Assembly (NCBI GenBank): GCA_964430885.1
Contig: CAYSHM010000007.1
Span: forward strand, 32,001 to 96,000
From: an uncultured archaeon
GTDB lineage: Archaea; Thermoplasmatota; Penumbrarchaeia; JASLWR01
Direction: 5' to 3'
DNA length: 64,000 nt
Below are positions 10,008-41,740 of the stretch, in pieces. Numbering within the stretch: the first letter of the stretch is position 1; every line of letters begins with the position of its first letter. A program made the position numbers and the translations under genes. The notes under the pieces are model-generated. The model was not told the DNA's origin and made no database searches. It saw only the letters and a list, made by a program, of their open reading frames with translations.

Positions 10008-11636
10008 ATGATGGCCATGGCAGGTTTTTTTGACACAAATAAAAAATTCCGGGTCCGTACGGGATCCATATCCTCATCAAAGGTGCAGGAAAGGGAACTG
10101 CGTGCAAAAGCAAAGAAATTGGCCAAGGACCCCGGACTGATCATTCCCAAATGCAGAGGGAAATGCTTCGGATGCCCTTTCAAGACTATAGAGAAAAAGA
10201 TCAGATCCATCCAGAAATACAGCGATAATCTGAAGAAGCTAAAAAGCGCTTCCAAAAGAGGCAACAAGGTTGCCCGGGCTTATGCTGGCACTCTCATGCT
10301 AGCTCACAAGGAATTCACTCCTTTCATGAAATTGTTCAAAACCCCGAGCGGGCAGATCCCTTTTGCCATAGTGGGTCAGAACGATCCTAGAAAGCTCATC
10401 GGAATACAGCATTTCGACAACCAGGAATACCGGCTCATGACCTTCATGGACCTGGCAATAAAAAAGAAAATATACATTTTCTCAGTAAAAGATGGAATGG
10501 TATGTACTGGGTCGGTAATGGCACCTCCTGAAGGGTTCATAAAGGATTGCGTTGACAGGCTAAAGGTAAAGTTGAGGCCTTCCAAAAAGGGATATATATA
10601 CTTAACCAAGAACCTCAGGCCAAAATTGATAAAAAACAGCAAACAGACAAGGGTGCCTTACATGGAACTGGTATGGACCCCTGCCAAGACAACTTTCGCA
10701 CTTGATGAGGTAACACTGCGTGGAACCAAGACCCATACAATGGCCACCTTGACTGGATTGGTGGCGGGGCCCAATATCAAGGACGGTTTTTCAGTAAAGG
10801 TCAAATACCTTCCCCAGTGTGCTGAAAAGTCGGATGACTGCACCCTTCTTGATCTGCACCCTGACCTCCAAGAGCATTACGGAGAATACAAGGATTTCAA
10901 GAGTATAGACCACCAGCTTATCAAGAAAAGCTATGAGGACATATTGGAAGCTTACTCTGATTCGGAAAGGAATATACTTCTTTATGACGGGTACTGCTTC
11001 ACCTCCAATATCAAGGGTTTTCTTGACCATGTGGGTGTCAAGGGAAGTGTAAGAACTGCATTGGAAGCGGTTCTGAAAAGGGTAAAGACCCCCAAGATCT
11101 ACAAGAAGAAGGAATCACCCCTGAACATTCTGCATAATCACTGGAAGGATTACGGATACTGGGCGCTGTTTGCGGTCTGCAAGGACAAAAAAGTGGCAAA
11201 GGAACTCCACACTGAAGATGACGTATCCACAACTTCAATCGTGGACCACCTTGAGGAAGCAAAGAAATCCGTGAGATCAATATCAATTCTAAAGGAATTC
11301 CCTGAATTCTCATCCAAGGACCTGCCCGAGCCCATTATCATTGCAGACAAAACCGCCAAACTATTCAAGAGCAGGGGGAAGAACGCTGCAGTGAACTATC
11401 TGGGCGGTTTGAGCCCAAAGGATAATCAATCCCACGGGACAATATATGCATTCCTTTTGGCCTTGAGCTCTACTTCGGGAAGGGAATGGAAATTCCAGGA
11501 GTCTCAGAGGGATGTGGGCGAATTTTTGAAACCCTTTGCCAAAGAGCTTCTGGAAGCCGGCCCGGAGAACTACACTGAAAAACTTCAGACCTTTTCCAGA
11601 TATACCGGGTCAACAGTAGAAGTGGTGTCCTTATGA
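10008..11636 (+). CDS. Hypothetical basic protein with N-terminal C-x3-C-x2-C cluster
   Basis: 542-aa Lys-rich ORF containing PKCRGKCFGCPF; function not recognised. Confidence 0.8.
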   Translation: MMAMAGFFDTNKKFRVRTGSISSSKVQERELRAKAKKLAKDPGLIIPKCRGKCFGCPFKTIEKKIRSIQKYSDNLKKLKSASKRGNKVARAYAGTLMLAHKEFTPFMKLFKTPSGQIPFAIVGQNDPRKLIGIQHFDNQEYRLMTFMDLAIKKKIYIFSVKDGMVCTGSVMAPPEGFIKDCVDRLKVKLRPSKKGYIYLTKNLRPKLIKNSKQTRVPYMELVWTPAKTTFALDEVTLRGTKTHTMATLTGLVAGPNIKDGFSVKVKYLPQCAEKSDDCTLLDLHPDLQEHYGEYKDFKSIDHQLIKKSYEDILEAYSDSERNILLYDGYCFTSNIKGFLDHVGVKGSVRTALEAVLKRVKTPKIYKKKESPLNILHNHWKDYGYWALFAVCKDKKVAKELHTEDDVSTTSIVDHLEEAKKSVRSISILKEFPEFSSKDLPEPIIIADKTAKLFKSRGKNAAVNYLGGLSPKDNQSHGTIYAFLLALSSTSGREWKFQESQRDVGEFLKPFAKELLEAGPENYTEKLQTFSRYTGSTVEVVSL

Positions 11637-11783
11637 GAACAGCACCGAAAAGGACTTTTCATTAATGGTTATTAGGAATTGCTCATAAATTATATATTCA
11701 ACAAGTGATATATCGTGCTAATCAATTCAATTGATAGGTTTCGTGCTAAAAAATAATTCCAAAACCTCCTTCAGGTGAAATCA

Positions 11784-12929
11784 ATGGCAAAGAAGAAAAA
11801 GAAAAAGAGTTCCGACAAGGATGATGTAGAGATTGTCTTCGAAGCAGTAGAGGACGAAAAAGAAAAGGAATCCGCAGAGGACCTGGACGAACTGGATGAT
11901 CTTCTAGACGATACCATTGATATTCTCTATGACAACCCCAAGAAAAAAGAGAAGAGTGGCGGGCGGAAAAAGAAGAAGAAAAAGAAGGTGAAAACCAATC
12001 TCCCACCTCCTAAGAAGAAAAAGAAATCGGTAAAGAAGGAAAAGAAAGAGGATGAAGAAGAAGAAGTAGAGAAGGATAAAAAGAAAGAAAAACCACCAAA
12101 AAAGGCCACAAAGAAGAAACCCAAGAAGACTGCCAAGAAGATCGCCAAGAAGAAAGAGGTGGTCGAAAAGGACGTTATGCTTGAGGTAGCGAACAAATGC
12201 GAACATCTGGAACTAGCTCTGGAGAACTTTAAGTACACCTATAATTCGGTCAAGGAGGAACTGAACAAACTCAAGGTTCAGAAGGACACCAACCAGGCGA
12301 AGATAGATAAATATGAGAAAAAGCTCGAGGTCTATAACAAGGATTTTGAGAAATACAAGAAGCGGGTCACCAAGAAGAGCAGTGAGATGGGGAAGAAGGC
12401 GAAGATAGAGATGATAGGGACAATGCTGGAAATATTCGACAACTTTGAGAGGGCTATATCCAACACCGATCCCGAATCGCCCTCCAAGGACCTGCTCAAA
12501 GGCCTTGAGATGATGAGCAAGAAATTCCTGAGCATTCTGGAAGGTGAGGGTGTTGAGCCTATCGAATCGGTGGGCAAGAAGTTCGACCCTCAACTCCACG
12601 ATGCATTAGCCATGCTTCATAATGATGACTACGACGACGGCATAATATGTCTGGAGATCCAAAAGGGCTTTGGTCTTCTGAACGATGAAGAGGACGAAGA
12701 GGATGAGAAAGAAGAAGAGAAGGATAAAAAGGGGAAGAAGGCGAAGAAAAAGATAGGTAAATATAAGAAGATCATTCGTCATGCCCGGGTTCATGTCTGC
12801 TCCAAGGATAAGGGAAATAAAGGAAAGGATAAGAAGGATAATGAGGACAAAAAGGGTGGGGATAAGAACAAGAAACCTGAAAAGAAGAAGACGTCTAAAA
12901 AGAAAAAGAAAGGATCTAGCAAGAAATAG
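11784..12929 (+). CDS. grpE: GrpE nucleotide exchange factor with long K/E-rich extensions
   Basis: Coiled coil then DFEKYKKR, DNFERA, GVEPI...FDPQLHDAL, QKGF and IIRHARVHV motifs. Confidence 0.88.
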   Translation: MAKKKKKKSSDKDDVEIVFEAVEDEKEKESAEDLDELDDLLDDTIDILYDNPKKKEKSGGRKKKKKKKVKTNLPPPKKKKKSVKKEKKEDEEEEVEKDKKKEKPPKKATKKKPKKTAKKIAKKKEVVEKDVMLEVANKCEHLELALENFKYTYNSVKEELNKLKVQKDTNQAKIDKYEKKLEVYNKDFEKYKKRVTKKSSEMGKKAKIEMIGTMLEIFDNFERAISNTDPESPSKDLLKGLEMMSKKFLSILEGEGVEPIESVGKKFDPQLHDALAMLHNDDYDDGIICLEIQKGFGLLNDEEDEEDEKEEEKDKKGKKAKKKIGKYKKIIRHARVHVCSKDKGNKGKDKKDNEDKKGGDKNKKPEKKKTSKKKKKGSSKK

Positions 12930-13250
12930 CTCATCTGAATGAAGCAAAATCCCTGTTCGACAAGCGATATATCATTCATATCTGAATATTTTACTATATT
13001 CGGGTTTTTATAAACTTATTGGAATAAACTAATCCCGCAGTTCACCCTTGGACAATAATTATTAAGGATAGTTTTTCGTTGGGATATGTCCCATTCAACC
13101 TTTTTATACAATGAACCGATTTACCCATTTTGACCGTCTTGAACATGCTGAATTCATTTCAGCAGAAGAGGGAAAATCAATTGCCCGAACCCGGTTTCAT
13201 GGACGGGAACTGAAAATAGTTTTCATTTACATATGCTAGGAGTTGTAAAA

Positions 13251-16200
13251 ATGGTAGAGCAGCAGGAAGAGCTTTTTTATTTTGATTATGACCTTGAGGA
13301 ATTTGACCATGAGGTCTCCCGGCTGATCAAGCTGGAAGAAGAGAGACAGCAGAGGAAGATTATCCTCATTGCCTCGGAGAGCATCAGCCCGGAACCGGTG
13401 AGAAAATGCCTTGGAAGCGTATATACCAACATATATGCCGAAGGTTATCCTTCTACCCAAATGGGATTGGATAAAAGGGAACTGCTGAAAGACCACAAAC
13501 ATCAGATGGCATATCTGAGAAGGTATTCCGATAAAAGGTACTATAAGGGAACTGAATTTGCCGATTTTGCCGAGGCCCTCGCACAGAAAAGGGTGGCTGA
13601 GCTCTTTGCCACTGAAAATGTACCCGCAGAGGATATATATGCCAATGTTCAGGCCCTTTCAGGCGCTCCGGCCAATAATGCGGTATTCACGGCATTCCTG
13701 AAACCCGGGGACACCGTCCTAAGTATGGCCCTCAACTGCGGAGGACATCTGAGCCACGGCAGCGAGGTGAACAGATCGGGCATTTTCCACAAGGTGATCC
13801 CTTACGGATTGGAAAGAGGACAGGATAAGCTCAACTACGACAGCATAGAAAAACTGGCATTGGAACACCTACCCAGGCTGATTATCGCGGGTTACAGCGC
13901 CTACCCCTGGGATATCAAATGGGATCGATTGAGGAATATTGCTGATAAGGTAGGTGACGGCTGTATATTGCTGGCCGATGTTTCACATATCTCAGCCTTC
14001 ATTGTTGCAGGCATCCTCAACAATCCCATCGAGCATGCCCATGTTGTGATGTTCACCACTCACAAGGCTATCGCAGGTCCGAGGGGGGCAGCGCTATTGA
14101 CCACTAATCCAGAACATGCCAGTCTTATTGATAGAGCGGTTTTTCCAGGGGAACAAGGCGGGCCCCACATCAATAATATAGTCGGCCAGGCGGTATGCTT
14201 CAAGATAGCCGCAACAGAGCAGTTCAGGAAATACGCAGAGAAGGTGGTGGAAAATGCCAAGTTCTTCTGTGAAGTGTCTAGAGAACTGGGATTGAAGATC
14301 GCCTACGGTGGTACGGAAACACATCTTTTCCTCATTGACCTGAAATGCCTGGGCAGGAAGAACGGATACTATGTGACCGGTGAAATAGCCACCAGGATAC
14401 TTGATCAGATAGGTATTACACTCAATAAGAACACCATATCCGGTGACGATAACTCCAACCATCCCACAGGTCTAAGGATCGGTGCACCCTGGATAACCCA
14501 GAGGGGTGTTTCAAAGGATGATATAAGGGAGATGGCGGAGATAATTGATTATGTTATCAGGAACATTCAGCCATTCCACTATGAAGGGATGGATGATGAG
14601 ATAGGCCGGGGAAAAATCAAGCTGGAGGTACTCCTGAAAGCTAGGAAAAGAACTCGAGACCTGATCAAGCGCATACATCAGAAGGATTATGATAAAGAGC
14701 GCGGGTATCCTTATTACCTAAACAATCCGGAGATCGGTGGTGAGTCCCCTCTTATGGACCTGCATGTTGAAAACGGGGCCGAAATGGAAGAGCGATGCGG
14801 GTGGCGGCTGCCCTTTTATAAGGCGGAATCATCTGGAGATATTAACGCTCCCGTTATAATCGATGCTTCATGCCAGCCTATCTTAAGGATTAGAGGAGAT
14901 GAGGAGAGGATAAGACCCTTCCTCGGGCAGATGTGCACCGGAGAGGTGCTCTTGGATATAGACGAATCAACAAGGACCTTTGTTCTGGATGAAAAGGGAA
15001 ATGTAATAGACGATGTGCTTATAACAAGGATCCATGACCCACGTCAGGGTTTCGCCTCTTATTATATGATAGGAAATGCCGAGAACGCCTATGTTCTCAG
15101 GGAATGGATCAGGGGCATAGCTGACGGTTACCTGATCTTTGATGAAGAGGACATCTACAGAAAAGTGGAGGGGCCAGCAGTTGTAGAGGATCTTCACAGC
15201 GACGATGATATCACCATCAGAAGAACCTGTCTTGTCATCATCGGAGACCACACTCTGAAAATCGCCGAAACCATCAGGAACAAATATCCAGGCATTATCA
15301 CAGCCTATGAAAAAATAGCTGGGAAAGATGTCGTCCACATCATCACTCCCTTGAAATCGATTGAAGAAATCTGGTCAGAAGTGAGTATAAAGGCCGGGCT
15401 GAAGCGAACTGATTCTCTGAGGAAGAAAGAAGGTTTGCCCTGCTATACTGAACTGGGAGAGGGGCAGGCAGTAATCGCTAAGGATATATTCCATGCACTT
15501 CCCGACCACTTCGCACTCCATAAACCCTATTTCGTCGGTCAGAAACCGATACTGAATGAGCTTGACCTGGAGGATGGGTCCATCAAAGAGAAAAAAACTT
15601 GGAAATGGACAGAGAAGGAAAAGGGTCTTCAGCGAACCGTTCTTTACCAGGACCATGTGGAATTGGGAGGACGTATGGTACCTTTTGCAGGATGGGAAAT
15701 GCCTGTATTCTACGAAGGTATAATGCCGGAGCATAAGGTTGTTCGAATCGGAGCGGGTCTATTTGATGTATCCCACATGGGAGTCATGGATTTCACCGGA
15801 AAATACGTGGCAGATTTCCTGGATATGCTTACTACAAATTATTCCCGATGGATTAGACCTGGGCAAACCCAATATGCCTATATCCTCGGACCCGACGGGA
15901 AGGTCCTTGATGACATATTCATCTATAGAAAGGCAGTTGATCGATATATGATGGTAGTGAATGCTGCCAATGCGGACAAGATATGGTCTTGGGTAAATGC
16001 GGTGAATTCCGGTCAGATCCTGCTGGACTCAAAGAATCCACATATTCGAATGCCTGAGGGAATTGTGATACGGAATCTCAAAGATAGAAGTTCGGGAGAT
16101 GAGATGAAGATAGATCTGGCCCTTCAGGGACCAACCGCCAGGGAAATACTGCTATCATTATGCAAAGAATCCCATTTGAGGGAGCTGAGAGAACTTGAAA

Positions 16201-16880
16201 AAGGCGATTTCGTCGAAGTGAATATCGCGGGTATTGAAGTAATGGTGGCTAGGACGGGTTATACTGGTGAGGAGATAGGCTATGAACTTTTCATTCACCC
16301 CGACAATGCCTGCAAGCTATGGCGTACCCTTCTTGAAAAGGGCAAGGAAAAGGGTATCGCAGCCACTGGTTTGGGATCGAGGGACTCCACCAGAACTGAA
16401 GCCGGTTTCCCCTTATACGGTCATGAGATCGAAGGAAAACTAGGCGTCTTCCCAATGGAGAACGGCTATTCCCAGTTCCTAAAGCTTCATAAACCCTTCT
16501 TTATTGGAAGACACAGGGCTGTGATACAGGCACAAGGAACTGAAATGGAGATTGCCAGATTCCAGATGATAAATACCAACATAAAGATGCTCAATACCGG
16601 TGATCCTGTTGCCAACCGCCAGGGCAGATGTGTAGGCTATGTGGCCAGCTCCGTATTGGTTGGTGACCGACAGATAGGACTTGCCTATCTAAAGAAGAAG
16701 GAGATAAGAACGGGAGCAAAGCTGAACATCTTCCCATTGGGCAGAAGCGGTCGGGCACCAAAGGAAACACCCCGGAACAGCTGGAAACCTGGAGATAGGA
16801 CTGTAATACCTGAAGAGTCAGTAATATTGACAAGATTCCCTGAAGACGGAGAGATGGAGGACCGGGCTCAAGGACTATGA
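13251..16880 (+). CDS. glyA-gcvT: Fusion: serine hydroxymethyltransferase + degenerate GcvT domain + intact glycine cleavage T protein
   Basis: SHMT motifs LIASES, YAEGYP, GGHLSHG, GYSAY, TTHK (PLP Lys) and QGGPH. GcvT motifs FAGWEMP, GLFDVSHMG, VVNAAN, ALQGP, RTGYTGE and GLGSRD...EAGFPLYGHE. Confidence 0.95.
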   Translation: MVEQQEELFYFDYDLEEFDHEVSRLIKLEEERQQRKIILIASESISPEPVRKCLGSVYTNIYAEGYPSTQMGLDKRELLKDHKHQMAYLRRYSDKRYYKGTEFADFAEALAQKRVAELFATENVPAEDIYANVQALSGAPANNAVFTAFLKPGDTVLSMALNCGGHLSHGSEVNRSGIFHKVIPYGLERGQDKLNYDSIEKLALEHLPRLIIAGYSAYPWDIKWDRLRNIADKVGDGCILLADVSHISAFIVAGILNNPIEHAHVVMFTTHKAIAGPRGAALLTTNPEHASLIDRAVFPGEQGGPHINNIVGQAVCFKIAATEQFRKYAEKVVENAKFFCEVSRELGLKIAYGGTETHLFLIDLKCLGRKNGYYVTGEIATRILDQIGITLNKNTISGDDNSNHPTGLRIGAPWITQRGVSKDDIREMAEIIDYVIRNIQPFHYEGMDDEIGRGKIKLEVLLKARKRTRDLIKRIHQKDYDKERGYPYYLNNPEIGGESPLMDLHVENGAEMEERCGWRLPFYKAESSGDINAPVIIDASCQPILRIRGDEERIRPFLGQMCTGEVLLDIDESTRTFVLDEKGNVIDDVLITRIHDPRQGFASYYMIGNAENAYVLREWIRGIADGYLIFDEEDIYRKVEGPAVVEDLHSDDDITIRRTCLVIIGDHTLKIAETIRNKYPGIITAYEKIAGKDVVHIITPLKSIEEIWSEVSIKAGLKRTDSLRKKEGLPCYTELGEGQAVIAKDIFHALPDHFALHKPYFVGQKPILNELDLEDGSIKEKKTWKWTEKEKGLQRTVLYQDHVELGGRMVPFAGWEMPVFYEGIMPEHKVVRIGAGLFDVSHMGVMDFTGKYVADFLDMLTTNYSRWIRPGQTQYAYILGPDGKVLDDIFIYRKAVDRYMMVVNAANADKIWSWVNAVNSGQILLDSKNPHIRMPEGIVIRNLKDRSSGDEMKIDLALQGPTAREILLSLCKESHLRELRELEKGDFVEVNIAGIEVMVARTGYTGEEIGYELFIHPDNACKLWRTLLEKGKEKGIAATGLGSRDSTRTEAGFPLYGHEIEGKLGVFPMENGYSQFLKLHKPFFIGRHRAVIQAQGTEMEIARFQMINTNIKMLNTGDPVANRQGRCVGYVASSVLVGDRQIGLAYLKKKEIRTGAKLNIFPLGRSGRAPKETPRNSWKPGDRTVIPEESVILTRFPEDGEMEDRAQGL

Positions 16881-17085
16881 CCAAAATCAGCTCGGACCCA
16901 AATAGGTCAATATATTAAAATATCAAATTAGCTAATTAGGTATGGACCTAGTATAATCAATAACAAAACGTTTGAATGGACAATAAGAGAATCATTGATG
17001 CATATTGGAAATCAAGGAAATAAAAAATCAAATAAAAGAAAAATTTAAAAATATAATTAGTAAAAACCCAAGGGGAAGTGGCGAC

Positions 17086-17487
17086 ATGAGTGAAGAATAT
17101 ACAGTGAAAGAAGACCTAAAATATACCAAATCCCATGAATGGATTAAGGTTGAAGGAAACCTAGGAACCATTGGAATAAGTGATTATGCCCAAAAACAGC
17201 TGGGTGACATTACCTATGTAGAATTTGAAGCCTTTGAGGATGATGAAGTTAGCCCAAAGGATGTCTTCGCAACCATTGAGGCAGTAAAATCTGCCTCCCC
17301 ATGTTATAGTCCCGTATCCGGGACCATTGCTGAGCTCAATTTTGAACTGGAAGATGAGCCCGAGGTCATAAACTCCGACCCATTTGGCAAGGGTTGGATA
17401 GTAAAGATAGAGATAACCGACCTTGGAGATCTTGACGGTTTGCTCACCAGCCAGGAATATGAAAAATTCTTAGAAGAGGGACAATAG
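17086..17487 (+). CDS. gcvH: Glycine cleavage system H protein
   Basis: Y-x-x-SHEW, GISDYAQ-x-x-LGD, EAVKS (lipoyl Lys) and INSDPFG-x-GW; start moved to ATG 17086. Confidence 0.96.
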   Translation: MSEEYTVKEDLKYTKSHEWIKVEGNLGTIGISDYAQKQLGDITYVEFEAFEDDEVSPKDVFATIEAVKSASPCYSPVSGTIAELNFELEDEPEVINSDPFGKGWIVKIEITDLGDLDGLLTSQEYEKFLEEGQ

Positions 17488-17687
17488 CTCCTCTGCTTGT
17501 GAGGAAAATAGGACTGTTGGAATGAAGCTATGATCTATCACATAGGTTCACTGAAACTAGTTGCCTGAAATTCCTCAAATGAACTCTTATCATTTCTCCC
17601 TTATCCCATAATGAGCTTTGTTTGTTACCTGAATAAACAGCTCTAAACCACAGGGAAGGTTTTTACTCTGGATGGTGTCATAATAGA

Positions 17688-18518
17688 ATGAATGACAGGC
17701 AATACAAAAAACTGATAAATGAACTCAAATTACCTGAAGATATCGAAAAGGTATCAAAACGTCACGGAATCACTAGAGAAATGGCCCTGGTCCTCTACAC
17801 CCAGAATGTGATCTATGACACGAAGAGGCGATTTTACAAGATAAAGGGCAGTTCAGCCAAGATGTACAAGAAATGGACAAAAGGTACCAGCCTTCTACAG
17901 CTGGCAGAAAGCCATTATTTTCCGCCTATCCTGACAGGCAAGCTCATATTGGCCCACCATGGTATACCCAGAAAGACCTACAATTCCTACGTCAGGGATC
18001 AGTCATTGGCAAAGGATCCCCGAATAAGACGGGAGATGACGGAGCTGGTGAAGAAAGATATTATATACTCTGAGGAAGGAAACCAAGTCCAGAGGGAACG
18101 GGGGCTCATGGCCGAGGCTGAAATAGGCATATGGTTAGAGGAGATGGGTGTTGGATATTATCATGAGAACGATCTCCGGGAAATGGGACACCAGAAAACC
18201 CCCGATTTCAAACTGAAGGTCCCAATTATCTACAAGGGTCTTGAACTCAATTGGATAGAGTCAAAGGCCAGCTTCGGAGATCGGAAGATTATGCGGGAGA
18301 ACTACACAAAGCAGTTAAAACCATACCGGCGGTTGTTCGGCCCGGGAATGGTCATATACTGGTTTGGTTTTATTGTTCCCTACAAGGAACATCAGAATAT
18401 CATTATCGCCAACAGGAGCGTCCTCATCGACTACGGTAATATATCCGTTAAAAAGGTCAAACCCGAGGATATGGATCAAGAAGCAGATACATCACAGGGT
18501 GAAATGAGAGTAAAGTGA
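17688..18518 (+). CDS. TPD-domain / C15orf41 (CDIN1)-family PD-(D/E)XK nuclease
   Basis: G-x-x-x-E, KTPDF, NWIESKASFGD, QL-x-x-Y-x-x-x-FGPG-x-VIYWFGF. Confidence 0.9.
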   Translation: MNDRQYKKLINELKLPEDIEKVSKRHGITREMALVLYTQNVIYDTKRRFYKIKGSSAKMYKKWTKGTSLLQLAESHYFPPILTGKLILAHHGIPRKTYNSYVRDQSLAKDPRIRREMTELVKKDIIYSEEGNQVQRERGLMAEAEIGIWLEEMGVGYYHENDLREMGHQKTPDFKLKVPIIYKGLELNWIESKASFGDRKIMRENYTKQLKPYRRLFGPGMVIYWFGFIVPYKEHQNIIIANRSVLIDYGNISVKKVKPEDMDQEADTSQGEMRVK

Positions 18519-18584
18519 GATAAGGGTAATCATACCCTCCTCTACCTGATTATTCAAACAGCTAGAAACCTTATCAGAAAAGTT

Positions 18585-18839
18585 CTATTGGGTCCAGCGC
18601 AGGGATTCCAGAGGAAATGCCAAAGAGGTCTTTATAGTGGCAACATCGGTGAACTGCACCACAAAATCCGAGGCGCATTTTTCATTCTCTGCTTCAAAAA
18701 GGATAAGGGCATCTGGCTGTCCGAACATCCCTACTGATTTTATTATCTCCACACCCTTCATCATGACGGGATTCTTTAGAAGTTTGATAGCTTCGGTATT
18801 CTTACCAGGAAGTGTATCTATGAAGGTTACGAACAACAT
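18585..18839 (-). CDS. Small ferredoxin-like-fold protein (GYD / Lrp ligand-binding-like)
   Basis: 84 aa with FG-x-x-D-x-x-x-x-FEA and T-x-x-AFP pattern; AGGTGAT SD. Confidence 0.7.
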   Translation of the reverse strand: MLFVTFIDTLPGKNTEAIKLLKNPVMMKGVEIIKSVGMFGQPDALILFEAENEKCASDFVVQFTDVATIKTSLAFPLESLRWTQ

Positions 18840-18931
18840 AATGGATCACCTTTCAGGGCCGGCCACCGGCGGGTACCAACCCTCATTAACCAAACTATTG
18901 TAGTATGTCATATTTATAGCTCATTGAATAA

Positions 18932-19438
18932 TTAGAGAAACTCAATTGAAACAAAATGTTTCTGACCCTCGTAGTTATTATTGACAAAACGCAATTCATA
19001 GCTTCCACCGTGCAGAACTATGGGTTTATCCCAGGTCTTGCTTGTCGCATAGAGATTAAGTTCGATATATCCTACCTTTTCACCATCCATCTTATACCGG
19101 ATCAGGGTTGCATATGGACTTGGGTCTGTTGAATCAAGTGGAAGGATGTTGTCGCCGATCTTCACATAATCCACTCCCGCCATGAGCCGGTCAGGTATGT
19201 TGACATCCAGATTTCTTGTAGTACCGTTACCGCTGCTGTAGACCCTCTGGATTGTTTCTTTGATCTTGTCAAGTTCCATTTCAAGCTCGAGCTTGGCCTG
19301 TTTTTCCTGGTAGGCATTGAAACCCCCTATTGCAGCGGGGAGCGCTATAGCCATTATAATAACGGTGATCAATAACTTCATTGGAAGCTCAAGAACACCT
19401 TCATCAGAATCCATCAATCTCGGTCGTTTTCCTTTCAT
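18932..19438 (-). CDS. Archaeal pilin-like protein (class III signal peptide-like N-terminus)
   Basis: Basic leader, DEG|VLELPMKLLI hydrophobic helix, then an amphipathic helix and G-x-G-T-x-R motif. Confidence 0.7.
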   Translation of the reverse strand: MKGKRPRLMDSDEGVLELPMKLLITVIIMAIALPAAIGGFNAYQEKQAKLELEMELDKIKETIQRVYSSGNGTTRNLDVNIPDRLMAGVDYVKIGDNILPLDSTDPSPYATLIRYKMDGEKVGYIELNLYATSKTWDKPIVLHGGSYELRFVNNNYEGQKHFVSIEFL

Positions 19439-26855: not shown

Positions 26856-27162
26856 CTACCGCAACTGGGTCTTGTAGAGTTAAGTTATTATAACTGTTCA
26901 TTTATTTGGAATATCATTAATATCCCCTTTTTCAACCGTAGGGGAGGCTCTATTTCCAAATTAAAAATAAAAATATTGACGATAATAATAATTTCAAAAA
27001 GTGTATTCAATCCATTCAAATATCCTAAAAGACCTTTGGCCTTTGTTCAATTTCAAGGAGTGCAGCTGAGGCTTAGCTCCGCTTGATTTGACAGAATTTG
27101 CAGGACAAGAAAAGACCACATTAACTAACGGTTTCTTAGACCTGTTGTTCCGGGGGATGACT

Positions 27163-30100
27163 ATGGAATACTGTATGATATGCGGCAAGTACTACTGCAG
27201 CAAAGAGAACCTTTGCGATAATTGTCAAGGACTTAGAAATACTCCAATACACTCGGGGTCCGTGGAGCTTGCCAGGAAATTGACTGAATATAAAATACCT
27301 TTCCGCATGGCGGAAGATTTCCAGAGAGAACTCCAACAAAAGCAATGGGAGGCCATTGATTCTGAAATAGAAAATATATTCGATTCCTTATCTGACCCTG
27401 TAGAGGATAGTATTTCTCCAATGCTTCTCAATATCATTGGTAATTATTATCATATCAGGAATGAACCTATGACCGCACTTGACTATTATGAAAAAGCATT
27501 GGGGACCCGGAATGGATGTGTTTGGGCCCTTGAAGGGACAGCTTTGACAAATAAGGTTCAGGGATCCCGTAAAAAATCCAGAGAACTCCTGGCAGATTTT
27601 TATCGGAAACGGTTATCCCTGGAGGACAATATCCTACTGAACACCGAACTGCCCGACCCAGATGAACCTCCGCTTCCCCCGGGATTGGATAATCCTGAAA
27701 ATACGGTAAGAGTTTTCGAGGAGAAGCAAAGATTGCTTATGGATGAATATAAAAGTGAAATGCCTGCAAACAAGGATCTGGAGTTGATCAAAGATCAAAT
27801 GGTCGAATTGCTGCTGGAAAATGACTTATCTGGCCTGGAGGTTTGGAATCGGGTCGGTGAGGGAATACTCAATAATTTAGATGAAGTCAAAAAAGAAATT
27901 CCCAAGTTCATGAAATTTCGGAATGAGATCAAGAAGATGATCGAAAAGGAAGTAGATATTGGTGATATCCAATGTCAGGTGAAGATCGCGGAAAATGAAC
28001 TGGGTTTTTCAAATAACAATTTCAAGGAGAACTTTCAGAAGGCAAGGAAGAAATATTCCCGTTCCAAGAAGAACATTCTGATACAGGTAATGAAGAAAGC
28101 GCTTGAAAAGGTGGGGGAAGAACTTGGCGGGATCCTCTCTCTACCCTGGGAAGGCGAAAGAGTGGAAAAATGCATGCAGAGGCATCTGGAAACATTAAAG
28201 CTGATAGAGAAAGGGGATCTAGGCGGTACCAAGAAAGGATTGGACTGTCTGAAAAGTGATATCACTGAAATGATGAAAGGCTTGTTGAATAATATCTGTA
28301 ATAAAATTACTGATATGACAGAGAAGGCTGAAAAAGAGAAGCTACAAAAGCTTTCTGATAGTGCTGTAGAATACCTGGGAAAAAATGATAATCTTGCCGT
28401 ATTGAATATAATTAGAGATATCAAGAAAGGTTTGGAGAAGATATCTGATGTTGCCGAAACAGACCTGGATAATATCGAGGATACTGTTGATGATGTGATG
28501 TCCTTTCTGGAGGTTGTAGATGAAAAGGCAAGCTCTAAGGATGGAGAAATAAATGAATCTAGCTCTGAAAAACCTGAGCCCATCCATGCACCCGAAATTC
28601 CGGGACAATTTGAAAAGGAACATGGTGAAGAGAAAGGGGATGCTTTTGATGTTATAGGCGACATTGAAGGTCTTTTCCAGGATGGGACTGAGGAATATGT
28701 GCCTGATAAAGAAAATAAATATCAGGAAGAACCGCCTATCCCAATGGAGAAACCTGATGAAGCAGAGATGGACTTTTTCGACAACATTTCCGGATTAATT
28801 GAAGATGATACAGCCCCGGAAGATCATGACGATCCTGAACCTTTCGATCTATTGCATTCATCCTTCGACCCGGAACCCCTGCCATTGGAAGAACCTAATG
28901 AATCCGGACATGAGATGGCGGAGGAAACTTTTCCTCCACTCCCAGTCCCCGGGGATAAAGAACTGGAAGTTCTAAGCCTGGTAAAACCCCATGAAGAATC
29001 CCTTTTACCTCCCGATTCTGTCATCAGGGACGATATTGAGATGATATTTTCCCAACCGCCTCCTGATAATATAATCCCTGACGGAGAACCATTAACTGAT
29101 ACCATACCTGGAGATATACTACCGCCTCTCAACATAGAGCCTCCTGTGGAACCCAAAGAAGATATACTGCCCCCTGAAGTGATAGTAGCGAATCTTTTAA
29201 GGGATAAGATCGAGAGAAGAAGGGTCAAGTTGGAGACATGGAAAGAAAAGATGTATCGATCGGGCATGGACAATTCCCAGGTCATTCGACTGCTTGAGAT
29301 CCTTGATGACCCCAAAAGAGAAATGGAACTGAAAACCTCATTGGAAGAGATAGAAAGCGCCATAGCCTACTGCAAAGAACAGTGGGCAGAATGGAAACTG
29401 GATATGTCGAATATTCTTGACCATACTGAAGAAATGATAAGCCAAGCTTCACTTGAAGGACTTGAAACCCAGGATGTGGAACTTGCATTGAAGCTTACCA
29501 GGGATTCATTCAAATCAGGGAACCTTGTAGATGCAAAAGAGAGAGCGGAACTGATACAGGAGGAACTGGGAAACAAAAGAAAAAGACAGGTTTTCAGATC
29601 AAGGTTAGAGGATTTCCGTATTGCCATAGATGCTGAAAAGCATAACATCAAGAACATTGACATACCGGTGGTAAGGGAACTGGAGGAATTATTTCTGAAG
29701 GCTGACGAAGCCGAGGAAGAGGAAAACTTCGATGAGCTGGCCGGTTTATTGGATATAGGGGAAATAATCGTATCAAACATAATTGGAATAGAGGAAAGCC
29801 TTTTTGAATTCTATGACCAGAAAAAAGAGATTGAGAAATTGAGGGGAAAAGGGGTTTCCACAGGCAGCATATTGATGGAAATGGAATCTGCGGAAGATAA
29901 GATCGGTAAGGACAAGGATGCTTTCCTATATCATTATGAGAAACTTCTAACCCTATTCGGAAAAGCGAAAAGACAGGTTCTGGCCCAGTTGATCCGGGTT
30001 TCATTGGATAAGAGCAAAAGGGATCTGGACCTGGTCAAGGAGCTGGGTTTGGACAATATGATAATTGAACAGATAGAGGATATTTGGCTTACTGCCTCCT

Positions 30101-32031
30101 CCCACCTGGAAAGAGAGGAATATATCGCTGCTGAAAGAACCCTTGATAACCTGACCGCCAAGATAATGGAAGGATTTGATAGCAAACTCACTTTGTTGAA
30201 GAACGACATCACCCAGATAATTGACGGAGAAAGGATGACTGAACTTATCCATGAGCTGAATGCTGCATTGGACCTGTACTCGTCCCGGAATTTCGAAGAG
30301 CTTTTCAGACACATTGGCTCCTTGATTGAAAGGATAGATGTCGCCTCCTTTGAACAGAAAACCATTTCCATACTATCCCGGATCACTGAAGAGCTTTACA
30401 TCTACAAGGAAAAACTTGGAAATAATATAGTAATTGAGGACATCCAGAGATACAAAAAAGAGGCGCGGGAATTGGCCCGGGAAGGTGACGAGGAAGAGAC
30501 CAAGAACCGTATAGAACAGATACAGATCTCAATTGAAAAACTTGAAGAGATGGTAGAAGTTTTCGAGGAGATCAATAATTTCAAACATGGTATCTTGGCA
30601 GAGGACCATCCGGAGGAATTGACGAAAAATGTCCTGTATGAACTGGATATTGCTGAATCCATGCTGGATTCAAACATTGGATTTGCAAGAAGATATATAG
30701 CAAATGCCGAAAAGCTTATAGTCGAGGAGTCAAAGAAAATTGTTATCAGGGACATCAAAAGGATCCTCAAGGAGAGCAGATCAACCCAGAACATACTGAA
30801 AAATGAGGATTTTGATCTTAATAGCATTATAAAGCACCACATCGTAATAGAGGAACTTCTAAAGAACGACAAGGTAAATGATGCCCGCAATATGTCTTTG
30901 GTATTGAAACAGGAACTAGATTCAATCAAGAAGAGAGGTCTTACCCGAATACTGAAAAAAAGGATGGTTTCCCTTCAGAACCATGTTTCCAACCTGTTCC
31001 AATCCGGGTTTGAGCTCGGGGAAGTGGATGAGCTTCTTGAAAAGGTAGGAGCTGCTGTGGCCACCGGAGACATTGAGAGTGCGTTAATCGAGATGGAAAA
31101 GGCCGAAGAAAAGGTTGATGAACTCCTCACATACAAGGATATAATCCAGATGTTCAAACAGATAAGGCAGGAACTTGATGAGCTGAGCAATAAAGGTGTG
31201 GATGTCAGTCAGGGAGAGAAAATCCTTCACAGCTCCAGAGCACCGCTCCAGAAGGGAGATTATAATACTGTGATCCAGTATGGTGAACAGTGCCGAAAAT
31301 TGATAGAGCTGTATCACGAACAGGCTGAACTTCTCCAAAAGCTCAAATCCCTGGAAAGCGAGATCCGCGAAGCCAAACTGATAAGGGTCAATGTAAAGGA
31401 AGCTGCTGAAGAAGTTGAGAGAGCCCGGATACATATAACCGAATTCAAGTTCAAGGAAGCTAGAATTGCTATGGAAGCTACAAGGGAAAGGCTCAGGGAT
31501 TCCATAAAGATCTTCCATGAGACCATGGAACTGGTCAAAATGGCCAGGACGAAGATCGATGAATCCCGGAAAATTGGAATAGATGTGTCTGACCTGGAAG
31601 ACATGTTCATGAGACTTAAACGGATGCTGGGTGAGGAAAAATATGATCTTTCCAAACGCATCGCCAAGAATGTTATGGAAAAAGCTCTGTCAGCCCAGCT
31701 CCTGCAATTCTCACAGACCGAGCAGAAGGTCAAGGATACCAAATCAACTGAAGGGACCGAATTCGATGAGGAAACGGAGGATATCCTTAACTCTTTATAT
31801 AGCGATGACGATCAATTAGGGGCCGGACCTGCTGTATCACTGAAACCCATTTATAAAAGCTCTTCTGAAACCAAAACCGATATCGGAACAATGCCCACAG
31901 AAAGTTTGCTGTCAGATATCCAAAACAGATATCAGAACATGGACGACGATATTTCAGTCTGTCCCCACTGCTCAGGCAAGATAGCAAAGGGAAGCGCGTT
32001 CTGTTCAATGTGCGGGAAAAGGCTAAACTAG
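27163..32031 (+). CDS. Giant helical/coiled-coil repeat protein with terminal zinc ribbons, a TPR-like repeat and an acidic Pro-rich linker
   Basis: CMIC-x11-CDNC at the N-terminus, GNYY...ALDYYEKAL TPR-like segment, repeated G-V-D-V-S-type helical units, and CPHC-x10-CSMCG at the C-terminus. Confidence 0.85.
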   Translation: MEYCMICGKYYCSKENLCDNCQGLRNTPIHSGSVELARKLTEYKIPFRMAEDFQRELQQKQWEAIDSEIENIFDSLSDPVEDSISPMLLNIIGNYYHIRNEPMTALDYYEKALGTRNGCVWALEGTALTNKVQGSRKKSRELLADFYRKRLSLEDNILLNTELPDPDEPPLPPGLDNPENTVRVFEEKQRLLMDEYKSEMPANKDLELIKDQMVELLLENDLSGLEVWNRVGEGILNNLDEVKKEIPKFMKFRNEIKKMIEKEVDIGDIQCQVKIAENELGFSNNNFKENFQKARKKYSRSKKNILIQVMKKALEKVGEELGGILSLPWEGERVEKCMQRHLETLKLIEKGDLGGTKKGLDCLKSDITEMMKGLLNNICNKITDMTEKAEKEKLQKLSDSAVEYLGKNDNLAVLNIIRDIKKGLEKISDVAETDLDNIEDTVDDVMSFLEVVDEKASSKDGEINESSSEKPEPIHAPEIPGQFEKEHGEEKGDAFDVIGDIEGLFQDGTEEYVPDKENKYQEEPPIPMEKPDEAEMDFFDNISGLIEDDTAPEDHDDPEPFDLLHSSFDPEPLPLEEPNESGHEMAEETFPPLPVPGDKELEVLSLVKPHEESLLPPDSVIRDDIEMIFSQPPPDNIIPDGEPLTDTIPGDILPPLNIEPPVEPKEDILPPEVIVANLLRDKIERRRVKLETWKEKMYRSGMDNSQVIRLLEILDDPKREMELKTSLEEIESAIAYCKEQWAEWKLDMSNILDHTEEMISQASLEGLETQDVELALKLTRDSFKSGNLVDAKERAELIQEELGNKRKRQVFRSRLEDFRIAIDAEKHNIKNIDIPVVRELEELFLKADEAEEEENFDELAGLLDIGEIIVSNIIGIEESLFEFYDQKKEIEKLRGKGVSTGSILMEMESAEDKIGKDKDAFLYHYEKLLTLFGKAKRQVLAQLIRVSLDKSKRDLDLVKELGLDNMIIEQIEDIWLTASSHLEREEYIAAERTLDNLTAKIMEGFDSKLTLLKNDITQIIDGERMTELIHELNAALDLYSSRNFEELFRHIGSLIERIDVASFEQKTISILSRITEELYIYKEKLGNNIVIEDIQRYKKEARELAREGDEEETKNRIEQIQISIEKLEEMVEVFEEINNFKHGILAEDHPEELTKNVLYELDIAESMLDSNIGFARRYIANAEKLIVEESKKIVIRDIKRILKESRSTQNILKNEDFDLNSIIKHHIVIEELLKNDKVNDARNMSLVLKQELDSIKKRGLTRILKKRMVSLQNHVSNLFQSGFELGEVDELLEKVGAAVATGDIESALIEMEKAEEKVDELLTYKDIIQMFKQIRQELDELSNKGVDVSQGEKILHSSRAPLQKGDYNTVIQYGEQCRKLIELYHEQAELLQKLKSLESEIREAKLIRVNVKEAAEEVERARIHITEFKFKEARIAMEATRERLRDSIKIFHETMELVKMARTKIDESRKIGIDVSDLEDMFMRLKRMLGEEKYDLSKRIAKNVMEKALSAQLLQFSQTEQKVKDTKSTEGTEFDEETEDILNSLYSDDDQLGAGPAVSLKPIYKSSSETKTDIGTMPTESLLSDIQNRYQNMDDDISVCPHCSGKIAKGSAFCSMCGKRLN

Positions 32032-34859: not shown

Positions 34860-37800
34860 ATGAATTCCTTCAAAAGATACGGTCTGATTTTAGTGATATT
34901 CACATTTCTCCTGCTACCAATATCCGCAACCTTCACAAATCAGCAAGAAAGCGGACTGAAACCCTGGATGAACGGAGAAAGGAACGGCACTTACTTCTCC
35001 AATGTTACTTCCTTATGCGGTCTAGAAGGTGTAAGCGGCAACTTCTTCTCATGGGGTGATTTCAACAATGACGAATATCAGGATCTCCTGGCCCAGAATA
35101 GGCTTTTCATGAACCTGGGCCCTCCTTCCTGGACATTTATCGAGGTCACCCAAACCTGCGGGATAACCGGAGGCGGACATGGAACCTGGGGTGATTTCAA
35201 TAATGACGGTTATTCCGACATATATATGGTCGGTGCGAATATACTTTGGATGAATAACGGGCCGGATCAGAACGGCAGATGCTCATTCACAGATGTTACA
35301 GAAAACTCAGGAATTCAGGACTTTTCACATACCACGGCCTCCGGATGGGGTGACTATGATAATGACGGTTTTGCAGATCTTTTCATTGCCAGAGGAGAGG
35401 ACTGGAACGACGGAAATCCCCGTTACTACCCAAATGTTCTATACAGGAACCGCGGGGACGGAAGCTTCGAGAATGTGACACTTTCAGCGGGTGTGGACGA
35501 AAGCGTAAGTCCCACATATTCAAGAGGGGTGGCATGGTGTGACTACAACATGGATGGTTGGCTGGACCTGTATATATCCAACTACCGCCAGCTGCCCAAC
35601 TACCTATACGAGAACCAGGGAAACGGAACCTTTGTTGATGTTGCCCCGGCAAAGGGCGTTGCAGACGGGATCCCGGATTATTCCAACAATCCCGACCCCT
35701 ATGACAGGGCGGGCCACAGCGTAGGTTCCATATGGGGTGATTTTGACCAGGACAATGATATGGATCTTTGGGTGACAAATCTCAATCACAAGGATTTCAG
35801 GACATCCGACGATTCCCTTCTCTATGAAAATCAGGGGGCACCCCTTTTCGAGTTCCGCAATGTCAGGGGAGACAAGGGCATACCTGTTAAACCCTACATC
35901 GCTCCTAACCAGGGTGACGAACTCTTCGTGGGCTGCGCCTGGGATGACATGGATAATGACGGGTCCCTCGATCTTTTTCTGCCTCAGGTATACGACGAGG
36001 TCAATTATGCCTATTCATTTCTTTACAAGGGTGGTGACCAAGGCACCTTTACAGATATTACGGAAGAGGCAGGGGTAAGGGTTTGGAATACCTATGCGTC
36101 ATCCTGGTGCGACTACAACAATGACGGAATGATGGACCTTCTTACCGCAGGAAAATATCCATTTCAGAACGGCAGTTATGAGATAAGACTGTTCAGGAAC
36201 AACCTTGAGAACACCAACAAGTGGCTGGGGGTGAACCTTCAGGGTACTGATCATAATACCAAGGGAATTGGTGCAATGGTCTCGGTGAGAACAACCGGAA
36301 AGGAGTTCTCTAAACAGGTGGAAGCGGGAATGGGCGCTCACGGACAGCAGAATCCATTCACACTCCATTTCGGTCTGGGTGATAACCAGGGTCCAGTGGA
36401 CCTGACCGTAACCTGGGGGCCAGGTAAGATCCAGAACCTTACCGGGATAGAACTTAACCAGATCGTAAACATAACTGAACCTCTGGACCTGCCGGATCTG
36501 GCGGTCAGGGATATAATTCCTTCTAGGATAAGCCCAATAATAGGGGAAAACATCACAATCCAATGCAGGATCATGAATATGGGTGCAAAGACCATCGAGA
36601 AGGGGAATTTCAGTCTGTATCTGGACAATATTGACCCTGAGAACACTATTGGAAGCACGATCATCATCAGTGACCTGGACACCATGGACAGCAGAATCCT
36701 GGAATTTTTTCTTAATACCTCAGGGATTGAGGATGAACATGAGCTTATTGCCGAGGTGAAGGATATTGTTCCCGAGGATTCAAAGGCTGAGAACAACATC
36801 AAGAGCCAGACCATCGACATCAGGGAGAAAAACCTACCCCCGGTTCCTGTGCTGAATTTGGACACTTATGAGATAATGATCCAGGAATCCCTCGATTTGG
36901 ATGCTTCAGATTCAAGTGATGATGAGATGATAACCCACTATGATTTCGATTTCGGGGACGGCAACAGCACAGGCTGGATCATTTCGCCGACCGTCCAGCA
37001 TACATTTATTTACCCTGGTACATTTACCATTTCCCTGAATGTGATGGACGGAGACGAAGAAGCTGCCAGATCTCCAGTTACCCAGGATATCGTTGTTACA
37101 GCTCCTGAGAACATGAAACCTTCTGCTTCAATAGTTTCAATAGAACCCCAAATCGCAAGGCAGGGAATCGATAGTGTGGTATTCCATGGTGAAGGTACTG
37201 ATGAGGATGGAGTTATTGTTGATCTCATATGGCGCTCAAGCCTTGACGGAACGCTGTCCCATGACGAAAAATTCCAGCTCAAGGCAGAAGAATTAACACC
37301 TGGAAAGCATGACATCTACCTCAGGGTAAAGGATGACAGAGAAAGCTGGTCGGACGAATCTCACGCCATGGTAGAGATACGGCCTCCAAACATGATGCCC
37401 ACGGCATTTATCGATCTCATTTATCCCAATCCTTCAAAGTTAGGGGGAAGGGTGGAATTCAGGGGTCACGGAGAGGACAGGGACGGAGCAGTGATCAGCC
37501 ATATTTGGACCTCCGATATGGACGGGCTGCTCTATAATGGAACTGAATTCTTCACATCAGCATTATCCTCGGGCAAACACAACATAAGTCTGGCGGTGGT
37601 AGATGACATGGGAAGTGTATCAGAACCGGCTGTTACCTCACTTACCGTGGGCGGACCAAACCTGGCACCTACCTGCAGGATACTTCTCATTGAACCCATA
37701 CCTGCATATATCAGAGAAGAAACCTACTTCTATGCCGAGGGCGAGGATGCTGACGGTGGGATTAGCCAATTCATTTGGACCTCCAACCTTGACGGCTATC

Positions 37801-38390: not shown

Positions 38391-38515
38391 TGGTTATTTG
38401 ACTGCAGGGTAGTTCTGAAGGAATGAAAAACACTATGATCTTCGCTTAGGAATATTGAATTATTGTTCCTGGATTCTTAGTTATTTGTTATTGATACTTC
38501 TTATGATCACAAGTA

Positions 38516-41500: not shown

Positions 41501-41740
41501 AGCATGAAACGGTGGCGAGTCACGTACAGCGCTTGGGGAGATAAGGTTGGAATAGGTTCCCACTCCATTCCGATCTTTCTCAGAAGAGACCCTTAAAGGA
41601 CTTGATAGATGAAGGGCCTGGTGCTCCGGCCTCAATTGGTGCAGCAAGGGGTAAGGCAGCATATTGAGCATTAAAAGTGATACCAATAAAATGGTTGTGA
41701 AGAAAAGGAAACAACTATCTTTTTTCCGCTTGCACCACAA
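38516..41740 (-). CDS. Cell-surface DUF2341 protein with cadherin-like repeats, PKD and CARDB domains, C-terminal TM
   Basis: W-x-x-KR...DLRF...PYWVE-x-W...MFYGN...FDDFE (DUF2341); repeated VNDPP; TTG start after GAGGTGAT. Confidence 0.88.
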   Translation of the reverse strand: MWCKRKKDSCFLFFTTILLVSLLMLNMLPYPLLHQLRPEHQALHLSSPLRVSSEKDRNGVGTYSNLISPSAVRDSPPFHALWFDGFEDADDIDTMHRLTLSDNNLHSTGWQFKRVLTFNYSGPPLMNHQVLLELKGDDFDHRLTQNNGADLRFCHENGSMVPYWVETWNIGASSRVWLNLSLPGNGSGVIKVNMFYGNPEADPAASGEDVFVLFDDFENDNCGQGCVPGGWYLDAEGQYQFGMENIQGLGNVFWQYVPNWAQDPPHGGRSRIYRDVSPMNKWIFEGRVMSNNAYGNNLYQTWHLCAFGSSAATGVFRHHQGNHICYIGGSGLQPFPWNDNTWYDFRLTYNGTTHELYFNDILRASWTSPGGVASRFYLGSGYFGKNLYSTPRVRRFSTGAPEVEIGPETQNYIQFPYVLSREIVLPEKMANYTVFLEKEEPGESRILTSVLDPRTNATIGNLDLLGNSSINITEFINDSLSSVRLRAEFRPDQGDLPVLGSWGIGWRGRYPSFKGPIPDIDILEDDPGKKEMDLSHYIVDDYSESLGYEIQLVAEIPEGNLSILLVDTNLSVFDLADNYSGKTEIRIRYVNGFDLPTLSSIFSVNVIEVNDPPWWFSPYENIAVYEGDEIIFPGSIFGRVKDAEDDELLLEITAEDPDDPDLEITSQIDPSTDFLILNPPEDYFGDLNVKIRVSEKENPLFFDEMDVRVSVISVNDPPEPLNTSFELRIPEDSSALINTTELFGDLDHIDKEINCFITGISANIAYKYLGNGTFRLTPSPNWYGYQTFNLTAVDPLMGMGFMSIDLIVESVNDPPRSSILPSSSLFNGENDVILKGLGTDIDGIVTEYQWFSSIDGPLGSNSTLKIDRGLGLSPGKHSIEFRVMDDNGDWSEYTNVMIWVIEPLIKIGYFVVTPSDPVVGDLVEIGVWLENPSQVPINNITILAEVDGTVLNEFFFYHIPPSANISTQFQWEAESDEHNITLKIFDSRGIIHAEEQVNIGVNHPIWDLSGVGAVYLSLIVSFILLLIVLVLMLLLKRQKHRKALANLKERVEYQKSRGVGVHFIEEKMSLINRK

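Follow-up and report, generated by a model that had tools for sequence, protein, structure and literature searches.

A conserved three-part SHMT-T'-GcvT fusion in an uncultured archaeon, probably a bifunctional enzyme of glycine and serine metabolism

A gene in an uncultured marine archaeon (GTDB lineage Archaea; Thermoplasmatota; Penumbrarchaeia; JASLWR01) joins a serine hydroxymethyltransferase (SHMT), a degenerate copy of the T-protein of the glycine cleavage system (here called T') and an intact T-protein (GcvT) in one polypeptide. It lies in a stretch of 64,000 nucleotides, here called the window, from contig CAYSHM010000007.1 of GenBank assembly GCA_964430885.1 (positions 32,001 to 96,000, forward strand). 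The gene product is probably bifunctional, serving as the organism's SHMT and also as the T-protein of its glycine cleavage system, with T' as a spacer or interface, and it belongs to a family shared with bacterial phyla; the probability of this reading can be put at roughly 80%. The two roles are assigned because both outer modules retain the signatures of their families, because a search of the genome found no second SHMT or T-protein gene, and because the partner genes are present.

Two textbook enzymes are here held in a conserved three-part architecture that is apparently undescribed in the literature searched. A full-text search, restricted to main texts and with subscription journals mostly outside its scope, returned no description of an SHMT-T'-T fusion. 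It also returned no biochemical characterisation of any member, in line with a first-pass annotation of the window, made from the sequence alone, which knew of none.

Coordinates in this text are window positions, and residue numbers follow the 1215-aa numbering that begins at the first ATG (Table 1). A single forward-strand frame runs open from 13233 to the stop at 16880 and contains no internal stops. The likely start is the second ATG, since AGGAG stands 9 nt upstream of it and the public protein P0003 has the corresponding length of 1209 aa. Pfam finds SHMT (E 1.1e-111, aa 94-438) and two stretches of GCV_T (E 4.2e-80) on the whole frame; searched in pieces, aa 1-484 are SHMT, and aa 791-1215 are GCV_T (E 5.4e-68) with a weak GCV_T_C. 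The first-pass annotation had described the same succession of a complete SHMT, a degenerate T copy and an intact T-protein in one 1209-aa open reading frame. Pfam, NCBIfam and the single open frame bear it out, and its domain borders agree with those given here to about 60 nt.

Table 1. Features of the fusion gene and of its presumed partners. Positions refer to the window unless a contig of the same genome (G000) is named.
Feature	Position	Strand	Description
Fusion gene SHMT-T'-GcvT	13251..16880	+	1209 aa plus stop; frame open from 13233; public protein P0003 100% identical
SHMT module	13251..14684	+	aa 7-484; Pfam, NCBIfam, predicted fold
Family-specific SHMT insert	13455..13523	+	about 23 aa; loop between AEGYPS and (Y)SDKRYYKG; gap against PDB SHMTs
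PLP lysine K278 in TTHK	14064-14066	+	invariant in 27 and in 118 sequences
T' module	14685..15617	+	aa 485-795; degenerate duplicate of T domains 1-2
T' signature loop motif	15105..15194	+	W625...L654; consensus WlRgLsDgY..FD..D...Kv.GP.vv.Dl
T-protein module	15618..16877	+	aa 796-1215; Pfam, NCBIfam, PDB alignments; putative C-terminal barrel
T-module insert	about 15975-16136	+	about 30 aa; alignment with solved T-proteins
gcvH	17086..17487	+	133 aa from ATG 17086; open reading frame listed from TTG 17005; likely start ATG 17086
gcvPA	contig 14		532 bits
gcvPB	contig 14, adjoining gcvPA		681 bits
Dihydrolipoyl dehydrogenase	contig 33		709.6 bits (cut-off 592)
LplA-like lipoate ligase gene	contig 8		over Pfam cut-off
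fhs	contig 3		over Pfam cut-off

The frame is genuine and its three-part anatomy is real, as its conservation in other assemblies confirms. A species-level scan with two T' motif patterns, covering 185,579 genomes at one genome per species, found relatives of the fusion in at least 237 genomes, which is a lower bound. The best 80 of these 237 loci were compared. All 80 have the order SHMT-T'-T; the frame is complete in 66, cut by a contig end in 11 and split into two frames in three. Most come from Chloroflexota (63 loci). The others belong to Thermoplasmatota (9), an unplaced archaeon (1), Planctomycetota (2), Bipolaricaulota (2), Aerophobota (1), an unranked source titled Aerophobetes (1) and Spirochaetota (1). 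The first-pass annotation had proposed a domain-architecture search as a check; the scan shows a conserved family. The SHMT/GcvT fusions from anaerobic bacteria that the annotation mentioned have their counterpart here, the same fusion being found in anaerobe-rich bacterial phyla.

It is very improbable that the frame is an assembly artefact, with two or three genes wrongly joined, or a pseudogene. The three split loci are what would be expected of such an error, but the frame is continuous in 66 assemblies that are independent of one another and span at least six phyla, its junctions are conserved and it has no internal stops, all of which speaks against an artefact. In the split loci the break lies inside T' (L049, Thermoplasmata) or inside SHMT (L051 and L077), and it could reflect either a sequencing frameshift or a genuine split.

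Protein searches give the same picture of the family. Among the best 120 full-length relatives, all contain SHMT and GCV_T and measure 1137-1282 aa, except P0011 with 971 aa. Named sources of relatives are metagenome-assembled genomes (MAGs) of Anaerolineae, Chloroflexi, Aerophobetes, Methanomassiliicoccales and Thermoplasmata, as well as [Eubacterium] cellulosolvens. Database entries of about 1200 aa from Anaerolineae, Aerophobetes and Thermoplasmata MAGs have the same three-part order at 43-64% identity. They are named either 'glycine cleavage system aminomethyltransferase GcvT' or 'serine hydroxymethyltransferase', so each name covers one activity of the two, and automated pathway reconstructions will call SHMT or GcvT missing.

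With the T' piece as query, HMMER matched 201 proteins among 1.84 billion cluster representatives at E <= 1e-3. These are mostly 1000-1340 aa long with the match at about residues 480-800, and the shorter ones include contig-end fragments. Among the 120 relatives listed for the SHMT part and the 120 listed for the T part, those of stand-alone length were only fusion fragments or split forms. One Chloroflexota genome (G420) carries two fusion paralogues, on contigs 263 and 604, with frames of 1112 and 1283 aa, one with a short and one with a long T'.

The SHMT module scores well above the family cut-offs (PF00464 373.7 bits, cut-off 27; NF000586 397.1 bits, cut-off 335). It contains VVMFTTHKAIAGPRG; T275, T276 and K278 do not vary among 27 sequences, nor do these columns among 118. 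Its TTHK is the motif of the lysine that binds pyridoxal phosphate (PLP) in SHMTs. The module is predicted to keep the fold type I SHMT fold, the full-length model matching solved SHMTs with TMt 0.93-0.95 and E of about 1e-38. Compared with bacterial GlyA (E. coli 1DFO, Geobacillus stearothermophilus 1KKJ), the fused module is alike in sequence (37-38% identity), in TTHK and in fold (TMt 0.94-0.95), but differs in being fused to T'-T and in having a conserved insert of 23 aa in the EGYP/RYYKG loop. The insert has the family consensus RRY.DrR.Y, and stand-alone SHMTs break at positions 70-96 of the family hidden Markov model (HMM), the region of the insert. In E. coli SHMT this loop contains active-site residues. 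Against the family HMM, archaeal-type SHMTs of the same class score 163-189 bits and bacterial stand-alone SHMTs 347-392 bits; by these scores the fused SHMT is bacterial-type, unlike the archaeal-type SHMT of its same-class relatives.

The T module retains the family signatures of a T-protein. It exceeds the cut-off of TIGR00528 (255.6 bits, cut-off 235.85), scores 229-269 bits with PF01571 and falls slightly below the cut-off of NF001567 (297.6 bits, cut-off 300). The signature motifs DVSHMG, DD, RTGYTGE, GLG(A/S)RD and HKPFFIGR are invariant or nearly so in the 118 sequences. Solved GcvT proteins (Bacillus subtilis 1YX2, Thermotoga maritima 1WOO, E. coli 3A8I) align with it over nearly the full length of the module (E 1e-55 to 1e-40) and share these motifs. 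The putative C-terminal barrel gives only 16 bits with PF08669 (cut-off 25.9), and the phmmer alignment reaches residue 344 of 364 of 1woo; in the full-length model the barrel region consists of beta strands with a predicted local distance difference test (pLDDT) score above 90. Unlike stand-alone GcvT, the fused T sits behind SHMT and T', has about 30 inserted residues as well as a family-conserved tail of about 50 aa ending in RFP, and forms its own clade (support 100).

The gcvH gene lies directly 3' of the fusion, as the first-pass annotation had it. Its product exceeds the cut-offs of NF002270 (150.4 bits, cut-off 117) and TIGR00527 (138.8 bits, cut-off 115.85), and contains the stretch EAVKSAS, which is taken to be the lipoyl-lysine motif. 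The spacer between fusion and gcvH (16881-17085, 205 nt) has no Rfam match; the corresponding gap is only about 20 nt in L016 and L017, two loci whose genomes (G077 and G142) share the GTDB family of the window's genome.

T' is a different matter. Taken alone (aa 485-800), it matches PF01571 with 46.2 bits (cut-off 25.6, E 4.6e-12) over profile positions 1-152 of 255. When T' is aligned by hhalign with the family's own T, the probability is 100 (E 1.5e-61, 269 columns), and the match covers positions 2-305 of the 420 in T and takes in the family-specific insert. On this basis T' duplicates domains 1-2 of T and lacks the barrel. An unrooted tree separates T', fused T and stand-alone T into three groups (support 100, 97 and 99), among which no sister pair can be assigned. 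An AlphaFold2 model of T' alone (pLDDT 88.6; predicted template modelling score, pTM, 0.86) matches 1yx2 in Foldseek with E 5e-15 and TMq 0.65, and T' is predicted to keep the T-protein fold of domains 1-2. An ESM Atlas search with T' gave best matches of 0.86, below the 0.9 line, and these were GCV_T fragment clusters.

T' is not classed as a working T-protein, because signature motifs and the barrel have been lost. DVSHMG has become DASCQP in the window (family consensus D..D.G), RTGYTGE is gone, the window has Thr where GLGARD has Arg, and the C-terminal barrel is missing. It could still be a module that binds or docks a ligand, such as the polyglutamate tail of folate or the H-protein, and so regulates or feeds the catalytic sites. 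Most long forms retain T-invariant residues (the DD pair in 96-99 of 118 sequences, an Arg in 88-90, an Asn in 60-79), and the T fold is modelled with high confidence. The T' of the window is more decayed than the family consensus, however, having also lost T726 and G570, and half of the fold is absent in the short forms. The barrel that is missing from T' is the part that helps to bind the H-protein in the T-H complex of E. coli. A binding or docking role is quite unlikely.

A better-conserved element of T' is its signature loop motif, whose columns are invariant or nearly so in sets of 27, 55 and 118 sequences; even the shortest T' forms keep W, Y, FD and KV.GP. The first 20 residues of the motif have pLDDT of 85 and 67 in the isolated T' model, compared with 93-94 in the full-length model. 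The motif can be read as an interface element of a compact particle.

The genome of the archaeon (3.13 Mb, 91.6% complete) contains no other match to SHMT or to GCV_T. In five of five other fusion genomes, too, the fusion is the only GCV_T over the cut-off. Neither a canonical T of about 370 aa nor an SHMT above 500 bits was seen in those sampled Chloroflexota genomes that have a long fused frame; these tallies count the unpublished genome G443, of which no sequence entered the analysis. The first-pass annotation had placed gcvP and the L protein outside the window; both are found elsewhere in the genome, and the check for partner genes that it proposed located gcvPA, gcvPB, dihydrolipoyl dehydrogenase and fhs but not folD. 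A gene for an LplA-like lipoate ligase is also present. This gene content is what would be expected if the T module works with the H, P and L proteins. In some relatives the fusion sits at the gcvT slot of an operon: the order fusion-gcvH-gcvPA-gcvPB, that of the classical operon with the fusion in place of gcvT, occurs in four Chloroflexota loci (L059, L064, L066 and L069). A gcvH orthologue directly follows the fusion in L016, L017 and L098, and a Pfam survey of neighbours (20 loci, 65 proteins) found gcvP genes nearby in two further loci.

Several observations count against a bifunctional enzyme with a structural T'. FolD was searched for in the genome and not found; five of five fusion-bearing relatives have it, and its absence is therefore read as an assembly gap. 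An iron-sulphur (Fe-S) serine dehydratase was likewise looked for and not found. Only 14 of 66 loci with enough sequence have gcvH directly downstream. The T' module occurs in 48 long and 22 short forms (184-230 residues) among 70 complete members. In a third of members what is left of it is a core of about 115 residues, always with the loop motif, and the short forms show that most of T' is dispensable.

Some of the same observations would fit a plain co-expression fusion. The join would then serve only to keep the two enzymes at 1:1 stoichiometry and under common regulation, T' would be an inert remnant left by a tandem duplication, and the activities would not be functionally coupled. The linkage to gcvH varies, 22 of 70 members have a heavily deleted T', and T' is by mean pairwise identity the fastest-evolving of the modules (0.39, compared with 0.60 for SHMT and 0.54 for T). 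An inert leftover would not be expected to keep an invariant motif even in its shortest forms, nor to persist in every locus: a search for loss of T' among the 80 fetched loci found no member without it. Conserved inserts in both catalytic modules and the predicted compact fold also favour an integrated particle. A fusion that brings co-expression and nothing else is possible, though it falls short of an even chance.

The compact fold comes from a full-length AlphaFold2 model with pLDDT 91.6 and pTM 0.90 (the model's own confidence), in which the three modules are predicted to form one particle. Among the chains matched, no solved structure spans more than one module of the fusion. A complex prediction of the SHMT module against the T module, run without controls, scored 0.00 (mark 0.32) and gives no answer either way.

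In the proposed mechanism, T' would be a pseudoenzyme whose role is that of a rigid spacer or an interface. With the conserved inserts of the SHMT loop and of T and with the C-terminal tail, it would lock the T module at a fixed position relative to the SHMT module, which presumably dimerises as SHMTs generally do. Two folate-using sites would then lie on one particle in 1:1 stoichiometry. When the enzymes run in the direction 2 glycine <-> serine + CO2 + NH3, methylene-tetrahydrofolate (methylene-THF) from one site would be consumed at the other, and proximity would help.

Only in that interconversion is methylene-THF the product of one site and the substrate of the other. In the reductive glycine pathway both sites consume methylene-THF, and in the breakdown of serine and glycine both produce it; in either case nothing is handed between the sites. 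The first-pass annotation had called the T and SHMT steps consecutive both in glycine-to-serine conversion and in the reductive glycine pathway. The claim stands for the conversion of glycine to serine or the reverse, but not for the reductive glycine pathway, where the folate goes the same way at both sites.

This bears directly on true channelling, the reading of the first-pass annotation, in which methylene-THF, or else a folate kept firmly bound as a cofactor, would go directly between the T site and the SHMT site and bypass the free pool. Family-specific conserved elements lie at or near folate-using parts of the protein (the 23-aa SHMT insert, the paralogous inserts of T' and T, the C-terminal tail); the predicted particle is compact (pTM 0.90); and the fusion appears to have replaced both separate genes wherever it occurs. 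The shared folate direction in serine and glycine catabolism and in the reductive glycine pathway argues against it, and work on pea-leaf mitochondria reportedly found no channelling between unfused T-protein and SHMT. Channelling is on balance unlikely.

A more specific form, that of a folate-channelling machine, would have T' and the conserved inserts form a closed path or hold the folate tail, so that one bound folate moves back and forth from T site to SHMT site. It should be regarded as unlikely. If true, the organism could make serine from glycine, or two glycines from serine, while leaving the pool of free, labile methylene-THF untouched. Such a machine could suit slow-growing anaerobes with small folate pools, and would be a ready-made unit passed between bacteria and archaea.

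The distribution of the fusion within the archaea is patchy. T' matches occur in 16 of 401 genomes of the phylum: 12 are frames of 1074-1366 aa (that of the window's genome included), one is a contig-end fragment with SHMT, and three are stand-alone T-like genes. In a sample of 37 genomes of the class, three families (f1, f6 and f8; 7 genomes, the window's among them) have the fusion and no separate T. The other 30 genomes have a stand-alone T in 28 cases (27 frames of 362-424 aa, and contig-end fragments only in G150) and, in two incomplete genomes, no match. Separate SHMTs of the families without a fusion score mostly 221-260 Pfam bits, compared with 336-381 for fused ones.

Trees of the two catalytic modules differ in how firmly they separate the fusion from the class's own genes. 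In a T tree of 59 rows, built by a quick method with Shimodaira-Hasegawa-like approximate likelihood ratio test (SH-aLRT) support, fused T is a clade of its own (100) that includes all 12 archaeal fusions as a single subclade (97), and the class's own T-proteins make up a separate clade (100). An approximately unbiased (AU) test rejects a grouping of archaeal fused T with stand-alone T (p 9.4e-8); the group tested was chosen with the tree already in view, although the hypothesis itself implies it. The SHMT tree places the fused clade (99) next to SHMTs of bacterial type, and its archaeal fusions group together with support of only 87. The branch to archaeal-type SHMTs is very long (2.46 + 1.51 changes per column).

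A horizontal origin is weakened by two further AU tests. Archaeal fusions together with the class's own SHMTs are not rejected (p 0.305), and neither are the bacterial fusions as a single clade (p 0.473). Nesting of the archaeal clade inside the bacterial fusions had been considered and was dropped, as the latter test was not significant. The conclusion drawn, with support in part, is that the fusion did not arise from the T gene of this lineage and that horizontal transfer explains why bacteria have it too. It likely came from bacteria, given the bacterial-type SHMT and the higher frequency of the fusion in Chloroflexota (9 of 41 genomes) than in the archaeal phylum (about 13 of 401). It is proposed that in this lineage the fusion replaced separate genes for T and for the archaeal-type SHMT. 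The first-pass annotation had suggested horizontal acquisition and a per-domain phylogeny to examine it. The patchy occurrence in the phylum and the T test agree with it, T separating the fused form from the class's own, but the SHMT test is not significant, and neither is the test that bears on the direction of transfer. The annotation had also taken the host to be archaeal, and this agrees with a thermosome gene in the window and with the GTDB family shared with the Thermoplasmatota locus L016.

Other SHMT genes occur in the class. Genome G146, which has no fusion, carries a bacterial-type stand-alone SHMT (contig 1, 3120066-3121190; 552 Pfam bits) besides an archaeal-type one, and the extra gene may be another sign of SHMT gene traffic in the class. 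Relatives of the same family (L016:2969-4159, minus strand; L017:2949-4097, minus strand; G170, contig 11) also have a divergent protein resembling SHMT, about 390 aa long (PF00464 81-92 bits, match over the full length). In two of these three relatives its gene stands on the opposite strand, 2-3 kb upstream of the fusion; it was not found in the window's genome.

Fusions of T-like folate domains are known from other enzymes. Dimethylglycine oxidase and dehydrogenase and the alpha subunit of sarcosine oxidase (1PJ5, 4P9S, 1VRQ) resemble the present protein in having such a domain fused to a catalytic domain, and both the T module and the T' model match proteins of this type. In these oxidases the intermediate moves through an internal cavity to the folate site. 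Their partner is a flavin oxidase and not a second folate enzyme, and they have no pseudo-T module. Another comparison is offered by DHFR-TS (dihydrofolate reductase-thymidylate synthase) and formiminotransferase-cyclodeaminase, bifunctional folate enzymes with reported channelling. They have two folate sites on one polypeptide in common with the fusion; the chemistry and fold differ, and the fusion is known here from sequence and model.

One-carbon (C1) units enter folate metabolism mainly by two routes, SHMT and the glycine cleavage system, and the two also form the core of the reductive glycine pathway, which is being engineered. Whether methylene-THF passes directly between them is an old question, studied in plant mitochondria. 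The fusion would be a natural, conserved, single-chain version of the pair that comes with its own pseudoenzyme as spacer, and the genome shows no other copy of either enzyme, so the question becomes directly testable by comparing the fusion with its split modules. The family could also supply a compact part for synthetic C1 pathways. It would further illustrate the displacement of two separate metabolic genes by a fused one, and the fused gene is common to archaea and bacteria.

The surroundings of the gene are in part conserved. Synteny with L016 and L017 extends over the block GrpE-fusion-gcvH-TPD protein. The TPD-domain protein after gcvH (window 17688-18518, forward strand; PF14811 E 5e-41, no NCBIfam match) keeps its position in both, at 57% identity. 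GrpE (window 11775-12929, forward strand, 384 aa) has an N-terminal extension of about 160 aa ahead of its Pfam match at aa 160-301, and an extended form of 474 aa is also found in L016. In two Thermoplasmata loci the fusion is followed on the opposite strand by a gene of the FdhD/NarQ family, an accessory of formate dehydrogenase (L035:10769-11545 and L044:9190-9966, both minus strand); in L035 a MobA-like gene lies between the two.

An Rfam search of window positions 12000-19000 gave no match, and in a scan for bacterial promoters and terminators, which is ill-suited to archaea, sites were no more numerous than in shuffled sequences. Sampled words of the stretch occur in four DNA runs from one marine-metagenome study, two of which contain all of them and may be its source; no RNA run was listed. 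Elsewhere in the window are large open reading frames without a Pfam match: one of 542 aa (10008-11636, forward strand), which also has no NCBIfam match, and one of 1647 aa (27088-32031, forward strand). Several more giant proteins of surface type, with FG-GAP/PKD and DUF2341/cadherin-like domains, are encoded at 34860-41749.

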